Source: a phage
Strand: one strand, 5' to 3'
Length of the DNA: 52,467 nt
Sequence record: PZ379545.1
Positions within the stretch are counted from its first letter, which is position 1, and every line of letters begins with the position of its first letter. Made by a program: the position numbers and the translations under genes. Positions 40 to 41,501 of this stretch are shown here, piece after piece. The notes beneath the pieces are model-generated. The model had not been told where the DNA came from, ran no database searches, and worked only from the letters and a program-made list of their open reading frames with translations.

Positions 40-293
40 TTTTTTATTCTTAATTTGTTTCAATATTAATGAGACTAAAATTCGTAACAAAGCTACGAGA
101 CTCGACTTGTTACAATATTATAATTTTTATTTTTGGGTCGGCGGGGAGGGGAAGCCCAACATCCCTATCGGGATAAATACGGTCCCTTAACCAACTTTTT
201 CCAGCCTATCGGCTCAATTCCAAAACCATAGTAGGCGCTACGCTTATGAGTCAAGGTCAAGACAGCACGCTGTAAGAATGTGCTTATCTCTCC

Positions 294-310
294 ATTAGTT
301 GATTGTGAAT
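294..310 (+). promoter_or_regulatory. Candidate phage-type promoter motif (ATTAGTTGATTGTGAAT) upstream of the RNA polymerase gene
   Basis: Variant of a ~20 nt motif recurring in intergenic regions across the window. Confidence 0.35.
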
Positions 311-373
311 TGTGTAATGGCTACGCAAGCCTAATCCGTTTCAGTTAGAACTATACACAATTTGGAGACTATC

Positions 374-2488
374 GTGACTAATGAAGAATATCGTGCACTG
401 GCTGCTGATGGCGCTCGCTTGAAAGAAGAAGGCCACGGTTGGAAAGACGTGCTTGATACAATGGACCGTTGTAACCAGATGGTTGATGAAATCACCTCCG
501 CTACACAATCTGAAACTAAAACCGAAACTAAATTGGAGACTCGCAAAATGACAACTATCACAACTCAAACTATCAAATCCGTTGTTCCTGCTATCACCGC
601 TCTGGTATACCGTGCTAAAGAGAAACAGAATTACATGCAGCCTCAGACCTGTGCTATTGCTGCCCTTGCTATCTTCAAGATGCTGACCTCATTCACTCGT
701 GAAGATGTTGTACCAGCCATCGCTATGGTTGAACTGGCATCTGGTGCTATTGCTGATGCTAACCGTTACAACAACGACCTGAAAGCAATGCACTATGTTG
801 ACCCAGCTATCAACCTGATTGGTCTGGCTAAACACTTCGGTTTCATCACCATGAACGAAGATAAGTCATTCCAGTTGACCGAAGCATGGATTGAGCTGGT
901 CACAACTAAAGAGACTAGCATCCCGTTAACAGAACGTGTCACCACTGAAACTCGTCGTAAGCCTTTCGTTAAAGGTGGCAAGGTTAAGCCATCCAAGACT
1001 CTGAAAGCTGCAATCGAATTCCTGCAAGATACTGAGTATCATGTTGATGCTCAAATGGTTCAAGTTATTCAGTCCATGATTGAACAACGTACCTACGGTG
1101 GTTTGCAGATGCCAGAAGCTATCCAGACTGAACTTCATGTTTGGAACAATGCTGTAGCAATGGCTGGTCAGGATACTCTGTTCTCTGACTACTTTGCTGA
1201 TAACCGTGGTCGTCTGTATCATGTAGCATGTGCTGGTCCTAACCCACAATCATCTGACTTTGCTCGTTGCTTGTATTCTCACAATGTTGAGAACATCGTT
1301 AAGAAGTTTAACGAAGATGGTTCTACAACTCTGGCATACAACATGTTCATGGCTGAGCTGGAAGATATTTCTGGTGGAGACTGGTGTTCTGCTAAACGTT
1401 TAACTTATGTTGCTCAGAATCCTGCTGGTTCACTTGCTCGCATGATGAACATGCCTAAAGCTGAACGTCCTTCCAAGCCATTCACTTATGTTCGTCTGGC
1501 TCTGGATTGGTTCAAGTTTGAGACTACAGGTGAGTGCGATTCTCGTGTAGGCTTTGGCTTAGATGCTAAATGTTCTGGTACTCAATATCTGGCATTCATT
1601 GCAGGTAACATGGAAATGGCTCGTGCTACAGGTCTGGTTGATTCTGAGACTAAAGCATCTGACCCATACCAGTTGAGTCTCCGTGAACTGTTGAAGCTGC
1701 TGGACAAGTCTTCAATGAAACCTTCTGTTGAAATCATGGAAGAGTTCTTGAACCCTAAAGCTGGTCGTAAGTTTATCAAAACTCCATACATGGCTATTCA
1801 GTATGGTGGTGGTAAAGCTGCTTTAACTGGCTCTTCTGACTTTATCTCTTACATGACTGCATCTCTCCAGATTCCAGTTGAGAAAGCAGAAGCATTTGCT
1901 GAACTGTGTGTGGAAGCAATCCATAACGCATTGGGTGCTAAGATTAACATGTTCATTGAGAAAGCTGCTGATGCTGCATATCAACGTTGTGTTGAGCTTA
2001 ACAAGGAATACATCACCTATAAGCACACTGATGGCCAGGTTGTAATGAAGCCTTGCTTCCCATCTCGTGAAATCTGTGATGCATTCAGCATTCGTGTTGA
2101 CTCTCAAACTCGTGTTATCTTTGGTCAGATTCAGGAAGAGAAACCTTGGACCATTCGTGAATCCAATCCAACTAAAGAGGAATTCAAGCGTACTTTCGTA
2201 GTCAACTATATTCAAGGTATTGACGCATTGGTTGCTCGTACTGTTGCTGTTAAAGCTAAAGAAGCTGGTCTTCGTGGTTTCACTTCAATCCACGATTGTT
2301 TCCGTTGCTGCTTAGCTGATGCTCCACGTATGATGGAAGTTATTCGTGCAGCATATGTTGAAATCTTTGTAACCAACAATCAGTTTGAGAACTTGTCTAA
2401 GCAGATTGGTGGCATCAAGATGTATCATGAGAACATCGTAACTGAAGAGCTTCTGATGAGCGAACACGCTTACTACTTCTGTCAATGA
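374..2488 (+). CDS. T7-like single-subunit DNA-dependent RNA polymerase, short N-terminal region
   Basis: Translation carries the ssRNAP catalytic motifs as read against T7 RNAP from memory: DAKCSGTQY (motif A), RKFIKTPYMAIQYGGG (motif B), FTSIHDCF (motif C). GTG start at 374 with GGAG 6 nt upstream; the ORF track starts at TTG 362. Confidence 0.85.
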   Translation: MTNEEYRALAADGARLKEEGHGWKDVLDTMDRCNQMVDEITSATQSETKTETKLETRKMTTITTQTIKSVVPAITALVYRAKEKQNYMQPQTCAIAALAIFKMLTSFTREDVVPAIAMVELASGAIADANRYNNDLKAMHYVDPAINLIGLAKHFGFITMNEDKSFQLTEAWIELVTTKETSIPLTERVTTETRRKPFVKGGKVKPSKTLKAAIEFLQDTEYHVDAQMVQVIQSMIEQRTYGGLQMPEAIQTELHVWNNAVAMAGQDTLFSDYFADNRGRLYHVACAGPNPQSSDFARCLYSHNVENIVKKFNEDGSTTLAYNMFMAELEDISGGDWCSAKRLTYVAQNPAGSLARMMNMPKAERPSKPFTYVRLALDWFKFETTGECDSRVGFGLDAKCSGTQYLAFIAGNMEMARATGLVDSETKASDPYQLSLRELLKLLDKSSMKPSVEIMEEFLNPKAGRKFIKTPYMAIQYGGGKAALTGSSDFISYMTASLQIPVEKAEAFAELCVEAIHNALGAKINMFIEKAADAAYQRCVELNKEYITYKHTDGQVVMKPCFPSREICDAFSIRVDSQTRVIFGQIQEEKPWTIRESNPTKEEFKRTFVVNYIQGIDALVARTVAVKAKEAGLRGFTSIHDCFRCCLADAPRMMEVIRAAYVEIFVTNNQFENLSKQIGGIKMYHENIVTEELLMSEHAYYFCQ

Positions 2489-2758: not shown

Positions 2759-2806
2759 GTTCTAATTAATCTTAGAGCTGGCTTCAATATTGTAGCCATC
2801 TGTAAC

Positions 2807-2823
2807 ATTAGTTGGATGTGAAG
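2807..2823 (+). promoter_or_regulatory. Candidate phage-type promoter motif (ATTAGTTGGATGTGAAG)
   Basis: Best match to the recurring intergenic motif. Confidence 0.45.
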
Positions 2824-3264
2824 TAAAAGAATACGGAGAAATATTCCGCATGTCATGTTGAATCATTCTAGAAACATTCAGCATGTCAGCTTTGAGTTAC
2901 AGTGTTGTAATGATGTGGCAATCATTGAACTCCCTAGGTAGGCCACCTACAGTTCCAGCAACCATGGCAAAGAGTAGGATTATATACTTCGAAACTTGTA
3001 CTTCACCTATAGCATGTCTATTAGTTTCAATCTTGGTTCGCCACCTAGTAAAGTGCAATCTGGATTCAATCCTAGCTCAGTGCACAAAATAGCGGACAAC
3101 CTGTTACTCCTATTATCAAGGCCCACCCACAAGCCGGGAGATAACTTTTACAAGACTGGAACTTTTGGACATGCTTCTTCTTTTCGAAGTAAATTCGATA
3201 ACAGAGAAGAGTCGGAGCAAAGCCTCTCGTTTTCACGCAGAAGCCGCCCCGAATTTGAGCAACA

Positions 3265-3664
3265 AATATTGTGGCAATATTGCTACAGTATGGCATGTAA
3301 ATATTGCAACAAATCGGCATGTTAGAATGTGGCAGAATTGTTAGAGGACTAATCACCTCGAAGATACAATCGTCTACCAATCCGGCATGTAGATTTCGTT
3401 GCAGTATTTGTGCCAATTTAAGCATGTAATATTGTAACAGGTTCGTGCTAACCCGCATGAATACTGGCTTCCAGCCAAGCGAAGGCTTTATCATCGCATG
3501 TAATATTGTGACAATATTGGGATAAAACCCTTTATTTAATTAGTTTTATTATGCTGTACATGGTCGGTTTTCCGTACCTGCTTGCTCCAATCTTAATGTG
3601 CCAAATACATCAAGTATGGGAGTAAACCTGTAATTAATGATGCATGTTTAATTGTGACAAAATT
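3265..3664. repeat. Array of at least six AATATTG-N3-CAATATT-like palindromes, several preceded by GCATGT
   Basis: Perfect palindromes at 3265-3281 (spacer TGG) and 3502-3518 (spacer TGA); imperfect copies near 3276, 3301, 3428 and 3648; GCATGT at 3293, 3317, 3385, 3422, 3496, 3642. Region has no convincing ORF. Confidence 0.7.
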
Positions 3665-3712
3665 CGTCTATTTGGCAGATGAATTGGTTGCAATTAAGCA
3701 TGTCCATTTATC

Positions 3713-3729
3713 ATTAGTTGCATGTGAAT
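3713..3729 (+). promoter_or_regulatory. Candidate phage-type promoter motif (ATTAGTTGCATGTGAAT) ahead of the early gene block
   Basis: Motif match at the end of the non-coding repeat region. Confidence 0.4.
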
Positions 3730-7082: not shown

Positions 7083-7242
7083 GGATTGAATATTAAATAC
7101 CTAATACTGACACTTACTATTAGCGTTGTTATACTTACGATTGTTATAGGCTTTGCCAACCTGCTGCTATTACAAGCAGGAATATAAACTGGCGCGTTAA
7201 ATTAACAAGGAGCATTCATTGAGTGTTCCTGATTAATCTAAC

Positions 7243-7260
7243 ATTAGTTGGATGTGAGAG
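7243..7260 (+). promoter_or_regulatory. Candidate phage-type promoter motif (ATTAGTTGGATGTGAGAG)
   Basis: Motif match in the intergenic region upstream of the SSB-tip gene. Confidence 0.45.
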
Positions 7261-7332
7261 AGACAAAGCTATTCCGTGGTTAGCAATGTCACTGTAACTT
7301 AAACTGTAATTAACTTAATAGAGAAATTAATC

Positions 7333-7710
7333 ATGGCACAATATAACGATTTAAACACTGGCATCATTGGTGCAAACGGCTACAAGAAGCAAGACACTCA
7401 TCCTGATGTTCGTGGCCGCATTAACGTAGAGGGTATCTGGTATTGGGTATCTGGTTGGACCAAAAAGGCTGGTGACAATGAATTTACTTCATTGGCACTG
7501 ACCATCATGACTCAGGAACAAGTTGATGAAATGATGCGTAAGCGTGAAGAGAAAGCTAAAGCCAAAGCTCAACCTCAAGCTGCCGCTCAACAGCAACAGC
7601 CACGCCAGCAACCTTCTGCACAACAGCAAGCACCTGTTCAGCAACAGACGCAGAATAGTAACTACAACCCGAACGAGCCGAAAGACTTCGACGACGACAT
7701 TCCGTTCTAA
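7333..7710 (+). CDS. Small protein with Gln/Ala-rich linker and SSB-type C-terminal tip DFDDDIPF
   Basis: 125 aa: about 75-aa N-terminal domain, low-complexity QQQ/AAQ linker, last eight residues identical to the E. coli SSB C-terminal tip as I recall it. Confidence 0.7.
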   Translation: MAQYNDLNTGIIGANGYKKQDTHPDVRGRINVEGIWYWVSGWTKKAGDNEFTSLALTIMTQEQVDEMMRKREEKAKAKAQPQAAAQQQQPRQQPSAQQQAPVQQQTQNSNYNPNEPKDFDDDIPF

Positions 7711-7831: not shown

Positions 7832-8557
7832 ATGGGAGCTAGAATCTTCGAAATTCCAGTAAATCTGGTTAAAAATGGTGATACGCTTTGGTATGCAGAT
7901 AAAGAGTACCCAATCGTAAATGTAGTCCGCCTACGAGACTGCACAACACTTAACTACTTATTGGGAAAAGACCGAAGCGGGTACTTTAACTTCGAAAACA
8001 GTCGAATTGTTAAACTTATTGACAAGCAAAACGAATTCAATGTTCCTTACACTGCGGTGTCACCAACAATTGAGTTTCCTAACCAAATAAATCCAGTATT
8101 CCTTCCTGTAGAAGAGTTTAATAAACAGGAAGTATCCGATGAAGAAGATGTTCTCGGAAAAGATGTGGAAGTTGGTGATGTTATTTGGGTAAATAACAAT
8201 TGGGCAACTGTAACAAACGTGTACAAACATCCACATTCGCCAGCCAATAAAGTAAATGTAGACTATGGAAACATTAAAGGTTTACAAGTACGGCTGGCAT
8301 TAACTGGAACATTCTCAAGAAAGGTAAGAGCAGCAATGGAAACATTAAATATTCAAAATGCAATTGAAGCACAACGTATTCTTCTGCAAAAGCTGGAGCA
8401 AATGCTCGACTTAACGCAGCTCCCACCAACAGAAGATGGCAGGATTGCAATTGGCAACTGCAACATTCGCGTGGACAAGGCAACAGTTGTTAAAGCCGCA
8501 CGCGATGAGATGAAAGCTGCCGCAAGCAAATCCGCAGAGCTTATCAAGAAACTGTAA
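7832..8557 (+). CDS. Hypothetical protein
   Basis: 241-aa ORF, ATG at 7832 with GAGG RBS. Confidence 0.6.
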   Translation: MGARIFEIPVNLVKNGDTLWYADKEYPIVNVVRLRDCTTLNYLLGKDRSGYFNFENSRIVKLIDKQNEFNVPYTAVSPTIEFPNQINPVFLPVEEFNKQEVSDEEDVLGKDVEVGDVIWVNNNWATVTNVYKHPHSPANKVNVDYGNIKGLQVRLALTGTFSRKVRAAMETLNIQNAIEAQRILLQKLEQMLDLTQLPPTEDGRIAIGNCNIRVDKATVVKAARDEMKAAASKSAELIKKL

Positions 8558-10710: not shown

Positions 10711-10939
10711 TTTAAATATCAACTCAATCAAGCCAGAAGATATTCTCTTCCACCAGCCTCGTGGTCACTACTATCGAATTCTGTTTGCTACAAAGATTAA
10801 AACCCACTGCGGCAATTGGGTAGATGGGTTTGCTTACCAGGAAGTTAAGAAGTATGGAAATCATACTTTCTTGGGAATTAATTCGGTAATTTACACAAGA
10901 CCAAAGGAACTGTTTGATTCAGATTGGAAAGCAGTATAG
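10703..10939 (+). CDS. Hypothetical protein
   Basis: 78-aa ORF overlapping the upstream gene end. Confidence 0.5.
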   Translation: MSDLNINSIKPEDILFHQPRGHYYRILFATKIKTHCGNWVDGFAYQEVKKYGNHTFLGINSVIYTRPKELFDSDWKAV

Positions 10940-11009
10940 TTCCAGGCTGTTCCGTCGAAGTGCCAAGCGGGTTTTGTACTCGCATTGGCCTTCGGCTTAA
11001 TTCTGAAAC

Positions 11010-11026
11010 ATTAGTAGAATTTGATT
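11010..11026 (+). promoter_or_regulatory. Degenerate copy of the promoter-like motif (ATTAGTAGAATTTGATTC)
   Basis: Shares the CTGAAACATTAG prefix; core diverged. Confidence 0.25.
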
Positions 11027-11150
11027 CTGACCTCTTAGGGAAGAAAGGCATTATACACTTATCGCCAAATGGGTGTCAAGCACTTTCTTCATTTATTTAA
11101 TTTTATTCTTATTATTCTTTTTGTTTGGAATATTGGAATAATTCTGAAAC

Positions 11151-11170
11151 ATTAGTTGGAATTGAAGAGA
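11151..11170 (+). promoter_or_regulatory. Candidate phage-type promoter motif (ATTAGTTGGAATTGAAGAGA)
   Basis: Motif match preceded by the CTGAAAC prefix. Confidence 0.4.
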
Positions 11171-11817
11171 CAACATCATTGAAGTTCCTTCCATATCGTC
11201 TGGGTAGAAGCCCTGTGCACAAGGGTGGAGTGAAAGGTTCGAGTCCTTCCGATTGCGCGAGGGAACTTCAAGATGGAATGTTTCCATCATATACATTTAT
11301 CTTTTTAACATAGGCCAAAGGGCCGGAATACTTCTTCGCAGAAAAGCTATTCACTTGTTATAGGCGATGTATTGGGATGAATTGGAACTAAATAAGCAAG
11401 CTGTTAGGGCTGAATAATTAGAGGGTTGTGCCTCATGCTTATGTTAGTCATTCGAAAATAGGTTTGTGCCACAAGCTGCTGGTGCTCCGAGGAAGTCGGA
11501 CAAACAGGGCTTAGAGTGGCATAATCCGCACAAAACCGCACCACCAGCTATGCCAAAGCAGGTGGATTGGGTGAATGTATTGGGAAGGGTTGCAAAGCCT
11601 CTGTGAGCACGGTATCGCGTATAATAAGTGACGTCTGCGCTGCGTGTATCGCACCCTAACGGGAGTAACCCTTCGCCAATGCAGTTATCCAGAATTGACA
11701 CAAACGGTAGGCAGTGGCCCGATTTTCGGCCTTCCTGCGCTACTCTGTGGCCTGTTTCATGGGCCAAAAGATGAGAAGAGAAGTCACAAACACTGAATCG
11801 AAAATTGGAGAGTTCCT

Positions 11818-12135
11818 ATGATTCGCAAACATTCTGCCAAAGTTTTAACATTGAGAAATGTTAAAAGGGCTTTTAGTGACGATGTTGAGGAAACATTGCA
11901 CTTCGTACTTATTGGTGGTGTCTGGTGTTACAATGGAACATCGGATTTAAACTACTTAAGTAAGGCCAGTAAAGATGGGTTTTGGGAATATGATATTAAA
12001 TATATTCTCGAAGACAGTCCGAAATTTGATTACGACAGTATTATCGGAAGTTTCTACCACGGCCCAAACAAGTCCATGCAAATTGCGACGCGTGAGTGGA
12101 CGTCAAATCAACGAGTTTACGGAGAGCAGTATTAA
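11818..12135 (+). CDS. Hypothetical protein
   Basis: 105-aa ORF; ATG preceded by TTGGAGAG. Confidence 0.6.
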   Translation: MIRKHSAKVLTLRNVKRAFSDDVEETLHFVLIGGVWCYNGTSDLNYLSKASKDGFWEYDIKYILEDSPKFDYDSIIGSFYHGPNKSMQIATREWTSNQRVYGEQY

Positions 12136-12440: not shown

Positions 12441-13112
12441 ATGTCACACTATGATGACTCTAACATTGCGTTAGAAACCTGCAAGCAGTGGCTCACTGAT
12501 AACGATGCAGTCTATCTAGCCAAGGAAGACGTCATCATTATGTGGGTGCACTTTAATCCAGAATCGAAACGAGGCGAGTGGCAGCGGTACAAGATGAAAG
12601 AGGCTTGCCGCATTATTAAAGCTACTCGCGCAGGGTTTGATGCAATGAAGTATATCAAACCCGAAATGCTTATGCTTGCTGCACAAGAAGAAGAACGTGC
12701 TTACAAGCAGGCTGTTAAATCTCGCTCAACTGTTCCTCCAGAATTCTTTAATCTGGAGCGCGCTGGACACTTCAACAATTTAGAAATGTTGACATTGTGC
12801 ATGTTGCAAGAATTAGTTGGAAGAGGAATGAACATTGAAGCTGTTTGCCTTGGGGAACTCATGAAAGAGTTGTTCTTGACAAAGGGCTTTGCTGTGCCTA
12901 ATCGCACACTTCGTTGGAAACTGCTTCGTGCTGTTGAAGAGGAAGCTGGTGTGATTATACGTGACCGAACCAACCGCATGACCGTAACAGGTGTGGGACG
13001 TTTTGTTGCGATTCAAATCGAGGGCATTGATGACTCGATAACAACTGAACTCACTGTCGCTGAGACAAAGGATTTAGTGATTAAATCAATCGAACGATTC
13101 AATATGTATTGA
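12441..13112 (+). CDS. Hypothetical protein
   Basis: 223-aa ORF starting right after the upstream stop. Confidence 0.65.
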   Translation: MSHYDDSNIALETCKQWLTDNDAVYLAKEDVIIMWVHFNPESKRGEWQRYKMKEACRIIKATRAGFDAMKYIKPEMLMLAAQEEERAYKQAVKSRSTVPPEFFNLERAGHFNNLEMLTLCMLQELVGRGMNIEAVCLGELMKELFLTKGFAVPNRTLRWKLLRAVEEEAGVIIRDRTNRMTVTGVGRFVAIQIEGIDDSITTELTVAETKDLVIKSIERFNMY

Positions 13113-13143
13113 GTTGTTTGTTAAATCAGAGCAGTTCTGAAGC

Positions 13144-13164
13144 ATTAGTTGAATGTGAAAAGAG
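13144..13164 (+). promoter_or_regulatory. Candidate phage-type promoter motif (ATTAGTTGAATGTGAAAAGAG)
   Basis: Motif match about 70 nt upstream of the strongly codon-biased gene at 13236. Confidence 0.45.
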
Positions 13165-13235: not shown

Positions 13236-13574
13236 ATGGCTAAGATTGTAACCGTAACTCAGTATGAAGCTAACGATGGTTCCCTGTTCCTGAGCGAAGC
13301 TGAATGTAACGCACACGATTTCAAACTGGAAAACGGTGCTAAAATCGACGCAGCTGTTGAAGCGTTCGCTAACACCATGAAACTGGCTGACCGTTCTCGC
13401 TCCATGCAGAGCAACACCGTTGCATCCTTCCTGGCATTCTACCTGCCGTGGGTTGAAGCTGGTTGCCCGGAAGTTGAACGTACTGTGTTCGACACTCCGA
13501 AAGAAGTTAAAGTTGCCGAAGCAGAAGTAGTTGAAGCTGTTGAAGCTGCTGTTGAAGAAGCTCCGGTATTCTAA
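13236..13574 (+). CDS. Hypothetical abundant small protein with acidic Glu/Ala/Val-rich C-terminus
   Basis: 112-aa ORF with markedly different codon choice from neighbours (CTG, CGT, CCG, GAA, AAA preferred); TAAGGT RBS. Confidence 0.7.
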   Translation: MAKIVTVTQYEANDGSLFLSEAECNAHDFKLENGAKIDAAVEAFANTMKLADRSRSMQSNTVASFLAFYLPWVEAGCPEVERTVFDTPKEVKVAEAEVVEAVEAAVEEAPVF

Positions 13575-14468
13575 GTTGCTGATGGCAAACTTGAGAGACT
13601 AAGCTAAATCGATCTGGCACGCACTGGAAGATTTCCGGTACTGCCTTGAACCCATTCCAGAGTGAGTGGGCTTCAATGAGCATTCTTGTGATTAGAGTTG
13701 GGAGGTAGGCCGATGCCCAAGCTCGTGGCCCAGACAAGAGTGTTCATTGAAGTAGTTTTCTGAGTCTTACGACGGGCCTAAGCTGCCTGAAGTTATTGCG
13801 ACTGTTTTATTCATTTAAAATAAATGCAAACGATTCTGAAATGCGAGTTGCAGCTTAATTAAATTTAAGTTCTCTCCGTGGTCTTCCAATCCCATGTAAC
13901 CAAATTTGGCGCATTGTGGCTTCGAGATGTGATTAATAAATCGGAGCAATAATTAATTTGTATTCTGCGATGCAAAGCAGGCTTAAGTCCTCCAGTGCGC
14001 GTGGGGATGTGACAGAGTACAAACTTAATTATGCAGTTGGATATTTCTAGAGGACGGACGAGCACACTGGAATGTCTTCAATTGGTTTAGTGTGAGAAGC
14101 TATGCTAATTTGAAACGTAACTCCTTGAGGAAGTGCTCCTCTGGATTTCCCTCCTCACAGGAATCTCAAACCTGTGGCAGCGACTTCGAAGCTGCACTGC
14201 GTAACCTTATTCGCTTTAAGTGAATTGCCCTGAGCATGGAAATAAACTGCTCAAACCAATGATGCCCATAACGATGGGATAAGTTAGGTTGCCTGTTGGT
14301 ACTTGGGTTCAACACCTGCTTGCACTCGCAAAGTAGTGCCTCGTACCTGAGATGAAGTGAGTCGGGACCATCAATCCCACGTTATGTCAAAACACAGTAG
14401 GCGACTCACAGATTCTACAAGCCTCGCAGTTCGGGAAAACCTGCGTTACCAAAACCCACACCCTATTC

Positions 14469-14564
14469 GGACGAGTAGCTCAGAAGGTCTGCTCCAGAGC
14501 TTAGTCAGGTAGAGCAATCTGTTAGACAGATGTGTCGTTGGTTCGAATCCAACCTTGTCCACCA
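14469..14564 (+). tRNA. tRNA-like element with encoded CCA; anticodon arm unresolved, possible pseudo-tRNA
   Basis: 7-bp acceptor stem (GGACGAG / CTTGTCC, one G-U), perfect T-arm (GTTGG-TTCGAAT-CCAAC), discriminator A and CCA. D-arm halves TAGCTCAG and GGTAGAGC are split by about 24 nt; best anticodon hairpin has a 5-nt loop. Confidence 0.4.
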
Positions 14565-14594
14565 GCTTTAATAACCCGCAACACTGGAGTCCTC

Positions 14595-15113: not shown

Positions 15114-15496
15114 GTGAACATGGCCTAGCTAGTTGGTGGTGTAAAAGACTGACCAAGGTGACGACAGCCAAAGTATGGTCGAGTGGGATGCGCGACTTTA
15201 AATAACGTGAACCCAACCTTTCGAGGAAGTCGGTGAAAGCCCGCACGTTGCTCTGGGCATAACAATTGAAATTGCTGCCTCGCATTGAACGCGAGAAAGT
15301 TCAGGTGGTCACTTCCTAGAACAGTGTCCGAGAACACCCTCGCCAAAGTGCTTGAGAACGTTAGCTCTGTCTTGCCAGCATTAATGGCACGTTGGCCGCG
15401 TAAAGGCCACAGCGTCTGACCAACGTATCGGTTAAATCCGGTTCTAATTCAGGCTCCGGTGTATAAACAAAAGCCTACCAAATTCAATGGGATTTT

Positions 15497-15564
15497 CGTA
15501 TGTACGGGCTTGACCGTGGTGAAACGACCTGACTGGTTCGATTCCAGTGAATCCCCCGAACAAT
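15497..15564 (+). other. tRNA-like acceptor plus T-arm element without recognisable anticodon arm
   Basis: GGGATTT / GAATCCC acceptor pairing and perfect T-arm ACTGG-TTCGATT-CCAGT; the 36 nt between cannot be folded into D and anticodon arms by eye. Confidence 0.3.
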
Positions 15565-15983
15565 GGGTTCGTAGAGTTAAATTAAACCTGCACAATTGAG
15601 CGGGACAATAGTCCGAGGCCGACCGTGTAATTGTGAACGTGGAGTTCACCGAATCCACCACTTTCCTAACAGTTATGCCTCTGTTCAAAAGGCTCAAGAG
15701 AGCGTCTGGCATACCGTAGCGATACGGCTTAGTTGCGCTGATTGTGATGTGTCGAAAAGAAGTTCAGGCTTCTGATTGGAATCCTCCTTGTCCGATGTTA
15801 GCTGTATTCAAAATGCAGACTATGTTCCTATTCACATGAAATATGCAAGCCAAGGTTCTTAATGTTCAAACATGATGCGAGCATTAAGCGGGTTTTATTA
15901 CTTTTCCCCGAAAGTCCCTCATAAACAAGCGTGATTCACTTGGGCGGTTCGAATCAAACCTACTCAATTATCTGGAGAATCTT

Positions 15984-25686: not shown

Positions 25687-25872
25687 ATGCAAACAATATC
25701 ATGCCCACAATGCGGTCACTCAATAGCAGAGGACGACTTCATTACTCAACAGTGTCCGGTATGCGACAGCTATATGCGGTTGTCGCGTCTTGACACCAAG
25801 GCTCACCCAGACCTTGGGAAAATCATTCGCATCAATCCTGTGCAAACTTCAACATTAGTAGAACGGGATTAA
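25687..25872 (+). CDS. Small zinc-ribbon protein
   Basis: CPQCG ... CPVCD double CxxC; ATG 25687, or GTG 25633 if longer. Confidence 0.45.
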   Translation: MQTISCPQCGHSIAEDDFITQQCPVCDSYMRLSRLDTKAHPDLGKIIRINPVQTSTLVERD

Positions 25873-40353: not shown

Positions 40354-40365
40354 TACCTCTTTAAT

Positions 40366-40380
40366 ATTAGTTGAACATGT
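40366..40380 (+). promoter_or_regulatory. Promoter-like motif variant (ATTAGTTGAACATGT) upstream of the baseplate genes
   Basis: Partial match to the recurring motif. Confidence 0.3.
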
Positions 40381-40403
40381 ATTAATTTCAATAGGTGTAT
40401 AAC

Positions 40404-41501
40404 ATGCCGTGGATGCGTGGTATAGAGATAGTTGTCTCTCGTAAGGATGACCCTGAAACTAAGTCTGTGTTTAAAGCACACAAGATTGATTTCACCATCC
40501 GGTCAACTGTTGGTTGGCCTGCTGACACTGCCGACATTACTCTATACAACCTGGGCGTTGATGAAGTGAAGTTCCTTCAAGACAAGTCCTATGGTGATAT
40601 GTATATTGAAATTCGTGCAGGATATTTCGAAGACGAGCGTGGAGTAAACGCTGGTCACAGTAAGTACCAAAGTCCAGAACAGGCTGATTCAGAAGTAAGG
40701 ATTGAAATTGGTCCTAAACTTCCTACAATCTTTTCTGGCATAGTTACAAACGCAGTTGGATTCAGACGTCCTCCAGAACATGTAACACAATTGTTTTGCA
40801 TTTCCAAAGCATATGGTGCATCAACCGAATTCACTCAAATGAATGATATTCCAAACGGTGCAACTCTTGAGGATGCTATTCGTTCAATGTGTGCTGATTA
40901 TGGGTTCTCTACAATTTCATCTTTTGGTGTTGAAGAATCTGTTTTCAAATCTGTTCTTAAACTTGGGCGTGTATTTCATGACACATTCTTGGAAGAGTTC
41001 AGAACCCTTCTTGGTGAATACAACCTTCTGTTCTCTGTAACCACTGGTGAGATTCAAATCTTCCCAGATACCTACGGAAATAAAGATGCCGTAGATAGAA
41101 TGTCGAAAGACCGTGAGCCAATCAAGCTGGATGCCAACCAAGTTATAGGCAACCCGATTGCTGGCATTGCAACATACTCATTGAACACATTCTTGAATGC
41201 AAGTTATCAACCAGGAATGATTCTCGATGTATCTCCACTGTTGGGAGAGCAACTGCTTGCAAATGGTGTAACATCTGTTACCGGAAAGGGTGTAGTTCTT
41301 AACACAGACCAGAGTGTATTCCGCTGGGCTATGGAAGATAAATACTTCATTACAGAAGTTGTTCATCATGGCTCAACCCATGAAACTGTCTTCCAGACTA
41401 CCATCACAGCAATGCTTGGTGGCAATACTGCAATGGGCGGTAAAGAAGCTGCCTGGCAGCAAATGTATTTAAACAGTGGAATGGCGATGGAGTCTTTCTA
41501 A
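40404..41501 (+). CDS. Tail / baseplate-associated protein (putative)
   Basis: 365 aa, ATG 40404 after AGGTG; first gene after the tape measure. Confidence 0.55.
   Translation: MPWMRGIEIVVSRKDDPETKSVFKAHKIDFTIRSTVGWPADTADITLYNLGVDEVKFLQDKSYGDMYIEIRAGYFEDERGVNAGHSKYQSPEQADSEVRIEIGPKLPTIFSGIVTNAVGFRRPPEHVTQLFCISKAYGASTEFTQMNDIPNGATLEDAIRSMCADYGFSTISSFGVEESVFKSVLKLGRVFHDTFLEEFRTLLGEYNLLFSVTTGEIQIFPDTYGNKDAVDRMSKDREPIKLDANQVIGNPIAGIATYSLNTFLNASYQPGMILDVSPLLGEQLLANGVTSVTGKGVVLNTDQSVFRWAMEDKYFITEVVHHGSTHETVFQTTITAMLGGNTAMGGKEAAWQQMYLNSGMAMESF

Follow-up and report, generated by a model that had tools for sequence, protein, structure and literature searches.

The promoters of the T7, T3, and SP6 group of phages are 23-bp elements, running from −17 to +6, that are read by single-subunit RNA polymerases (RNAPs). 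They share a core (e.g., CACTATAG / CACTAAAG), and in the T7 group the 3′ half of the promoter is conserved while the 5′ half is variable; in the SP6 promoter, a purine-rich GAAGAG follows the conserved block. Here, we examine a motif that recurs, largely between genes, in a 52,467-nt stretch of phage DNA (sequence record PZ379545.1; "the window" refers throughout to this whole stretch), and compare it with these promoters and with the sites annotated in the related phage phiEcoM-GJ1 (GJ1). On the evidence of sequence comparison and structure prediction, the motif is most probably a promoter recognized by the T7-type single-subunit RNAP that the window itself encodes at 548–2488.

Among 80 phage records retrieved by megablast, those closest to the first 25 kb of the window are Escherichia phages PO103-1, MLP1, and Mangalitsa (87–90% identity); Yersinia, Erwinia, and Pectobacterium phages are also among the 80. 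The Mangalitsa record assigns its phage to Chaseviridae, Cleopatravirinae, Carltongylesvirus, and gives it a 3234-bp direct terminal repeat with the RNAP gene inside. Taken together with the placement of nearly every long open reading frame (ORF) of the window on the + strand, these relationships lead us to classify the window, from its sequence, as a GJ1-like myovirus (Chaseviridae, Carltongylesvirus) with a T7-type single-subunit RNAP.

The GJ1 record (NC_010106) carries nine 20-nt features labeled "putative phage promoter 1-9" and one "putative host sigma70 promoter". The annotated 20-mers (promoters 1–7) read NNNCATTAGTTGGATGTGAA; set beside the window sites, they show the same consensus at orthologous positions (Table 1), and promoter 9 is also matched by the covariance model described below. 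In NC_079183 (vB_EcoM_SA91KD), the same sites are annotated as [quoted passage not shown], with a predicted terminator closely preceding each of them. The promoter interpretation is not original, the sites having been annotated in GJ1 in 2008 and copied to later records; the comparative evidence presented here for that interpretation is new. The GJ1 sites are predictions only, and the profile by ICTV, the international virus taxonomy committee, lists the promoters of chaseviruses as unidentified. A literature search with the motif string returned no relevant paper, the papers on ST32, 4HA13, PYps23T, and Tiny make no mention of promoters, and chaseviruses fall outside a 2025 survey of RNAP-promoter pairs. 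The window differs from GJ1 in having no extra copy directly past the RNAP gene (GJ1 2641), and the copies ahead of the RNAP and terminase genes (window 294 and 25854) are unannotated in GJ1.

Detection and Anatomy of the Motif

A search of the window with the pattern ATTAGTTGRATGTGAAG, allowing up to three mismatches, returned six matches, every one on the + strand (294, 2807, 3713, 7243, 11151, and 13144; Table 1). Shuffled sequences gave a mean of 0.40 and a maximum of 3, and none of 100 shuffles reached six. Two further sites, 11010 and 40366, were accepted as copies on the strength of their orthology to annotated GJ1 sites and of a preserved flanking context. The shared motif that a preliminary description had recognized at eight sites is thus real, with six strong and two weak copies. 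A position weight matrix built from the six strong sites, the check proposed in that description, recovers them at 24.6–39.0 bits, compared with 9.3 bits for the top-scoring site on the minus strand.

The conserved bases form a single uninterrupted and asymmetric block of ~22 bp, T-N4-CATTAGTTG-RATG-TGAA. Across 28 sites from four genomes, information is concentrated from 6 nt 5′ of ATTAG to 15 nt 3′ of its first A. An alignment of 20 sites, drawn from five genera, shows no variation in TAG, in the G three bases on, or in TGA (positions 3–5, 8, and 13–15 in the preliminary numbering), and almost none in one T, one C, and two further T's. The flanks are less regular than had been stated: CTGAAAC, said usually to precede the motif, is exact at two of the eight sites (11010 and 11151) and within one mismatch at 13144 and 2807, and the AGAGA said to follow is found at about three of the eight (7243, 11151, and 13144).

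A contiguous block had been judged a better fit to single-subunit RNAP promoters than to a bipartite sigma70 promoter, and the ~22 consecutive informative positions bear this out. At the 28 sites, no TAnnnT stands at a fixed offset from the motif (maximum 5/28 downstream and 7/28 upstream), and a MotA-type bipartite element was rejected on this ground. A reading of the motif as a sigma70 promoter was also rejected: none of the promoter-like sites from a scan for TTGACA/TATAAT pairs spaced by 16–18 bp coincides with a copy, manual inspection found no −10 hexamer 16–18 bp 3′ of a TTGNNN inside the motif, and sigma70-type matches in the regions scanned (the window outside 16–33 kb) do not exceed the shuffled expectation (25 versus 35.3 and 33 versus 38.1).

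Like the T7, T3, and SP6 promoters, the motif is a contiguous asymmetric element co-oriented with genes, and it would be served by a homologous enzyme with a specificity-loop hairpin; as in SP6, purine-rich bases follow the conserved block. The motif has no resemblance in sequence to the T7, T3, or SP6 consensus, their shared core does not occur in the aligned sites, and, unlike in the T7 group, it is the 5′ half of the motif that is most conserved across lineages and the 3′ half that varies. Judged by sequence, the motif appears to form a separate specificity class, with only the general design in common with the T7, T3, and SP6 promoters.

Table 1. Copies of the motif and the RNAP gene in the window. 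Each copy is named by the coordinate of its position 1 in the preliminary numbering; SSB, single-stranded-DNA-binding protein.
Feature	Positions	Strand	Match	GJ1 counterpart	Adjoining hairpin
Copy 294, 5′ of RNAP reading frame, ATTAGTTGATTGTGAAT, medium	288–310	+	2 mismatches; 24.6 bits; model E 3.3e-4	573
Single-subunit (T7-type) RNAP gene, 646 aa	548–2488	+	Pfam RNA_pol PF00940, E 2.4e-19
Copy 2807, best match, inside terminal repeat, past RNAP operon terminator	2801–2823	+	0 mismatches; 39.0 bits; model E 1.4e-8	Promoter 1, 2897–2916	2736–2751, terminator-like, then T run
Copy 3713, closing ~1.2-kb gene desert, before early gene block from ~4013	3707–3729	+	2 mismatches; 33.6 bits	Promoter 2, 3833	3642–3703, long, z −5.8, ending a few nt 5′
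Copy 7243, ~77 nt 5′ of SSB gene (7333–7710)	7237–7259	+	2 mismatches	Promoter 3, 7044	7201–7237, z −2.8
Copy 11010, weaker first copy of tandem pair, ATTAGTAGAATTTGATT	11004–11026	+	4 mismatches; 19.2 bits; model E 7.6e-5	Promoter 4, 10496	10943–11005, z −5.0
Copy 11151, strong second copy of tandem pair	11145–11167	+	2 mismatches; 33.8 bits	Promoter 5, 10637
Copy 12812, doubtful, within 223-aa gene (12441–13112)	12806–12828	+	13.9 bits	Promoter 6, 12790, also intragenic (gp28)
Copy 13144, ~79 nt 5′ of gene 13236–13574	13138–13160	+	1 mismatch; 36.7 bits	Promoter 7, 13122	13091–13120, z −2.9
Copy 25854, weaker, 38 nt 5′ of terminase large-subunit ATG (25892), start of packaging/structural module	25848–25870	+	18.6 bits; model E 0.011	~26977
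Copy 40366, weak, 5′ of baseplate-hub gene (40395–41501)	40360–40382	+	4 mismatches; 13.8 bits	Promoter 9, 41980

Placement in the Genome

Five of the six strong copies lie within the 8% of the window that is free of + strand ORFs of at least 50 aa, and copies precede the RNAP, SSB, terminase, and baseplate-hub genes in the same orientation as these genes. Stable hairpins end a few nucleotides 5′ of five strong copies (z −2.8 to −5.8; Table 1), and at the 13144 copy NC_079183 annotates a terminator followed by a promoter. A seven-genome alignment of the spacer ahead of the SSB gene shows the motif as a conserved island, with the sequence of the upstream hairpin differing between genera. The tandem copies at 11010 and 11151, 141 nt apart, are joined by a 27-nt direct repeat.

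That one copy stands ahead of the polymerase gene itself, as first noticed, was borne out: the 294 copy lies 254 nt 5′ of the canonical RNAP ATG at 548, and 68–80 nt 5′ of an extended in-frame ORF (362/374). Orthologous copies precede the RNAP gene in GJ1 (573), Mangalitsa (133), Y2 (189), PM1 (186), Myduc (174), and 4HA13 (115).

The concentration of copies in the early half also stands, although the structural half holds two weak copies rather than the single one reported. The second of these, 25854, was not among the sites of the preliminary description; it has syntenic weak counterparts ahead of the terminase gene in GJ1 and Myduc (26994, 30 nt before terminase), and this copy at the start of the structural module is conserved in three genera. 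Counterparts of the 40366 copy occur ahead of the baseplate-hub gene in PM1 (41337), Y2 (43698), and 4HA13 (42332). The intragenic 12812 site is doubtful, as its conservation may stem from protein-coding constraint alone. A second motif, which had been thought possible for the late genes, was sought by a pairwise search of ORF-free segments, which returned only the known motif; inspection of the late-region gaps showed nothing recurrent, and a whole-genome k-mer self-comparison was dominated by codon-repeat noise.

The Phage RNA Polymerase

The window encodes a genuine T7-fold enzyme. Searched by sequence alone, the 646-aa protein matched no solved structure; a profile of 20 homologues aligned with T7 RNAP chains (E ~3e-17) over T7 residues 317–850, including the specificity-loop stretch. 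An AlphaFold model was obtained with a predicted local distance difference test (pLDDT) score of 89 and a predicted template modeling (pTM) score of 0.83, and its top Foldseek matches are T7 RNAP structures (E 2.6e-20, probability 1.00). Residues ~506–537 form a beta-hairpin region that aligns with the T7 specificity loop. Compared with T7 RNAP, the enzyme is ~240 aa shorter (646 versus 883), and its first ~170 residues remain unaligned by sequence.

Upstream of the canonical start, a 58-codon ORF (374–547) runs in frame and without a stop into the RNAP gene, giving a 704-aa reading frame; it has its own copy of the ribosome-binding context TTGGAGACT. The ORF is missing in GJ1 and a separate small gene takes its place in 4HA13, and the 704-aa form is called in 271 database sequences.

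Co-Variation of the Motif and the Specificity Loop

The motif is not confined to Carltongylesvirus: Y2 (Loessnervirus), PM1 (Suwonvirus), Myduc (Myducvirus), and 4HA13 (Sabourvirus) carry it at matching positions, on the + strand, making five genera in all. These positions lie on either side of the RNAP gene, upstream of the SSB gene, at the tandem pair past the anti-restriction gene, and upstream of both the next gene block and the baseplate-hub gene. A sequence-only covariance model run over 350 kb of eight sequences on both strands gave 50 matches at E≤5, all 50 on the + strand; none was found in VPs20, a Vibrio phage of the Nefertitivirinae (L007). Four loci (L003, L005, L006, and L008) entered through pattern and model searches only, and more distant RNAP lineages (L010–L014) were taken from public assemblies (Table 2).

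Table 2. RNAP lineages, their specificity loops, and the motifs found with them. Identity is to the window RNAP.
Lineage	RNAP identity	Loop	Motif
Window and Cleopatravirinae	68–100%	SIRVDSxTRVIFGQ	Present, CATTAGTTGGATGTGAAG
L010	56%	SIRLDPRTRVIFGN	Present, (G/C)TTAGTTGG, before and after RNAP gene
L014, element in Hafnia alvei chromosome	53%	SIRTGLQDRVIFGN	Present, CATTAGTTG(A/G)AAGTGAA
L011	40%	AVRVDLKTRVIFGD	TTAGTTGATWATGGA, 10 matches at ≤2 mismatches (9 on +) versus 0.10 expected
L012	41%	SIFLGSGEKTMHFGK	ACTTGGGTAGG, 3 exact copies on +; 6 matches versus 0.47 expected
VPs20	~34%	VSLGNGGKGVIFGA	CTCGCCCACTAGAA, 5 matches versus 0.27 expected
L013 (P0090 lineage)	36%	SIRYTQNTIISFGS	No recurrent motif found

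The loop pattern (I/V)R-x5-(T/D)RVIFG goes together with TTAGTTG in all four lineages that carry it, namely the window, L010, L014, and L011, over a range of 40–100% RNAP identity. In L014, only the phage-derived part contains good matrix matches, and the 7-mer TTAGTTG occurs 13 times on the + strand and never on the minus strand. The three lineages with other loops lack TTAGTTG, and two of these three have a recurrent motif of their own. L012, from which TTAGTTG is absent, has ACTTGGGTAGG at 8507, 11960, and 12980, one copy lying 7 nt past the RNAP stop codon; in VPs20, CTCGCCCACTAGAA was located at 2473, 3555, 5107, and 20997. L011 and L012 are equally far from the window RNAP, and only L011 has both the loop pattern and the motif, which suggests that the motif follows the RNAP specificity loop rather than overall divergence, a correlation across seven lineages. 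Such co-variation, in this small sample, would be the behavior expected of an RNAP-promoter pair, and it recalls the T7, T3, and SP6 group, in which lineage-specific motif classes likewise track changes in the loop.

Proposed Mechanism

The contiguous block, the coding-strand bias, the intergenic placement after hairpins, the T7-fold RNAP, and the tracking of the loop all support the attribution to the phage RNAP made in the preliminary description. The binding, start site, and strengths set out below are proposals built on these observations. The RNAP would bind one face of a contiguous ~22-bp duplex element, with the conserved 5′ half, CATTAGTTG, acting as the binding domain and being read by the specificity-loop hairpin (residues ~506–537). 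It would then melt the 3′ part and start within GTGAAG, where either G might be +1. Of the two, the second (position 14; window 2820) never varies and is followed by A, making it one candidate; the first would better suit a −17 to +6 frame. Transcription would run rightward into the downstream genes, and the hairpins may end or process the upstream transcript, so that the early and middle region would be split into hairpin-promoter-gene units. Strong copies would drive the early and middle blocks (2.8–13 kb), while the weak copies at 25854 and 40366, together with read-through, might supply the late genes. The 294 copy could confer positive autoregulation on the RNAP.

Difficulties and Alternative Explanations

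Several observations weigh against this scheme. It is the early and middle genes, not the late ones, that the strongest copies serve, which contrasts with T7 and is unusual for a T7-type phage; the ~27-kb structural region has two weak copies and no strong one, and no copy stands ahead of the major capsid gene. The literature searched yielded no 5′-end mapping, run-off transcription, or reporter data. The motif-loop evidence is thin and correlative, resting on seven lineages, one of which (L013) gave no motif at all in a crude de novo search. In L011, start codons follow ~10 nt after the end of the motif, which itself contributes the GGAG ribosome-binding site; the leader would therefore be very short if the start site is where we propose. 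Finally, scans for sigma70-type sites from the predicted physical left end to the RNAP gene returned none in four phages, the window, Mangalitsa, Myduc, and 4HA13 (scanned regions: window 172–548, L001 1–400, L006 1–260, and L008 1–450); the only signal that the four share over this interval is a weak motif copy. The sigma70 promoter annotated in GJ1 corresponds to window ~95–128, which lies outside the left terminal repeat (start ~175), and its −35 hexamer is degraded there. The scheme therefore does not account for the first RNAP molecules.

This last difficulty bears on two other readings. A self-starting circuit of motif and RNAP without a host promoter, in which the first RNAP would come from the virion or from weak use of the motif by the host polymerase, appears unlikely, as does, separately, a T7-like transcription-primed origin at the invariant tandem-copy block (~10960–11170); the text on the 4HA13 virion proteome is silent on RNAP packaging. 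The motif might instead bind another phage factor that, as with the T4 MotA box, redirects or activates the host RNA polymerase, and the missing sigma70 promoter before the RNAP gene would fit, since something else must then act first. Lineage-specific conservation and coding-strand bias are expected equally of such a site and of an RNAP promoter. A factor of this kind would nevertheless call for a −10-like element at a fixed distance, which the 28 sites lack, and the scanned regions show no enrichment in sigma70-type sites. It would also have to accommodate a motif that changes with the RNAP loop even at equal divergence (L011 versus L012), and would leave a dedicated RNAP without an identifiable promoter. 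We consider it quite improbable.

The motif might act at the level of RNA, either together with the adjacent hairpins, for example by directing processing or stability, or within the translation-initiation region; we estimate this to be very improbable. In the window, anything from ~25 to ~290 nt separates a copy from the next start codon, the 2807 and 11010 copies have no credible gene directly 3′, hairpin sequences differ between genera where the motif does not, and no Rfam family matches in the window; these points outweigh, in our view, the constant position of the motif on the transcribed strand beside stable hairpins, its overlap with a ribosome-binding site in L011, and the invariant triplets TAG and TGA, all of which speak for such a signal. 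The motif could also be mainly a recombination or module-boundary sequence, kept by exchange between related phages and without a transcriptional role. Near-identity of related genomes indeed extends to the 11151 copy and is lost completely a few bases 3′ of it, and copy number and downstream cargo vary among close relatives, GJ1 and Mangalitsa having an extra copy past the RNAP gene. T7-group promoters also serve as module boundaries, however, and these features are compatible with a promoter role rather than an alternative to it. Strict orientation, position-specific invariance over 40–100% RNAP identity, and the switch of motif with RNAP lineage would be left without explanation, making a pure boundary function extremely improbable. 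Recognition by the phage RNAP, as a promoter, remains the reading we prefer.

The Tandem Pair and a Possible Origin

In T7, the primary replication origin consists of two promoters in tandem, phi1.1A and phi1.1B, with an AT-rich stretch after them; phiOL is an end-proximal T7 promoter. By analogy, the window may offer counterparts of both: between the tandem copies 11010 and 11151 lies an AT-rich tract of 70 nt, and the predicted physical left end is ~120 nt away from one copy. A hairpin, the 11010 copy, the AT-rich tract, and the 11151 copy together make up a ~210-bp block (~10960–11170) that hardly differs in GJ1, Mangalitsa, and SA91KD, genomes that are ~88% identical overall. The block also holds a perfect sigma70 consensus on the opposite strand, which the T7 origin is not known to have. 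This consensus (TTGACA-18 nt-TATAAT, 12/12; minus strand, 11050–11079) opposes all genes, stands between the tandem copies, and is kept exactly in GJ1 and SA91KD.

Starting 15 nt past the candidate start site of the 11151 copy, a 93-nt hairpin (11179–11271, z −4.4) carries a tRNA-like T arm, GGTTCGAGTCC. Similar T-arm strings lie in non-coding sequence at 14480–14570, ~15535, and ~15946; the string near 14540 ends in CCACCA, at the place where GJ1 annotates an intron-containing tRNA-Arg. None of these strings was called by ARAGORN or Rfam, and ARAGORN reported no tRNA. Known RNA families were rejected as an explanation, Rfam giving nothing at gathering thresholds and one meaningless weak match in 10900–11860. 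Two long segments, 13575–14356 (782 nt) and 15114–15595 (482 nt), contain tRNA-like strings, no + strand ORF of at least 50 aa, and no motif copy.

Other Features Around the Copies

A cluster of GCATGT fills the ~1.2-kb gene desert that lies between the 2807 and 3713 copies, where the terminal repeat has its right boundary: 11 of the 28 copies in the window fall, on the same strand, in 2848–3725 (binomial P ~1e-12). Several belong to iteron-like units of ~20 nt, GCATGT-N3-5-ATTGT(G/A)ACA, at 3293, 3317, 3385, 3422, 3496, and 3642. These units could be packaging or repeat-boundary signals, or origin iterons. At the left, positions 1–174 begin with a run of ~30 T's, continue with two GAGACT-containing repeats and a G+C-rich hairpin, and match GJ1 300–430. 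The predicted physical left end falls at window ~175, equivalent to Mangalitsa nt 4; positions 1–174 precede it and would therefore belong to the junction ahead of the right-hand terminal repeat.

In the leader of the SSB gene, 3′ of the motif, a block at 7295–7330, TGTC(A/G)CTG(A/T)AACTTAAAC(C/T)GTAAATTA, is retained in relatives as distant as Y2 and 4HA13; it may be an operator through which SSB regulates itself. ORF2 of phage ST32 (PMC6266442, Table 2) starts at the TTG of "cattagTTG", inside the motif copy equivalent to GJ1 2641, which suggests that, in at least one genome, the element was taken for a start codon.

Two candidate promoters of other RNAP lineages emerged from the comparison: ACTTGGGTAGG of L012, a metagenomic contig, and CTCGCCCACTAGAA of VPs20, which loosely recalls the T3 core. 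No description of either was found in the literature searched, and a generic repeat finder applied to VPs20 gave only noise. The L014 locus (Hafnia alvei GCA_002206365.2, NJFP02000002.1 2778075–2800021) is a chasevirus-like element within a 4.8-Mb chromosome contig, adjoined by ordinary host genes; it encodes an integrase, holin, endolysin, an RNAP 53% identical to that of the window, and ArdA, and carries the same motif. A 53.6-kb metagenomic relative also has an integrase (L010 18330–19304). The family is described as strictly lytic in the ICTV text.

Implications

Chaseviruses, myoviruses with an RNA polymerase of the podovirus type, are candidate agents for phage therapy and biocontrol. 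As a discovery, the motif adds little, the sites having been predicted in 2008 and standing already in public annotation. What is gained is a testable promoter definition, ~22 bp in which TAG, G, and TGA never vary, together with its partner, a polymerase of 646 aa that is among the shorter ones of the T7 type. If the pairing is confirmed, the motif and its RNAP might be used as a compact orthogonal expression system.

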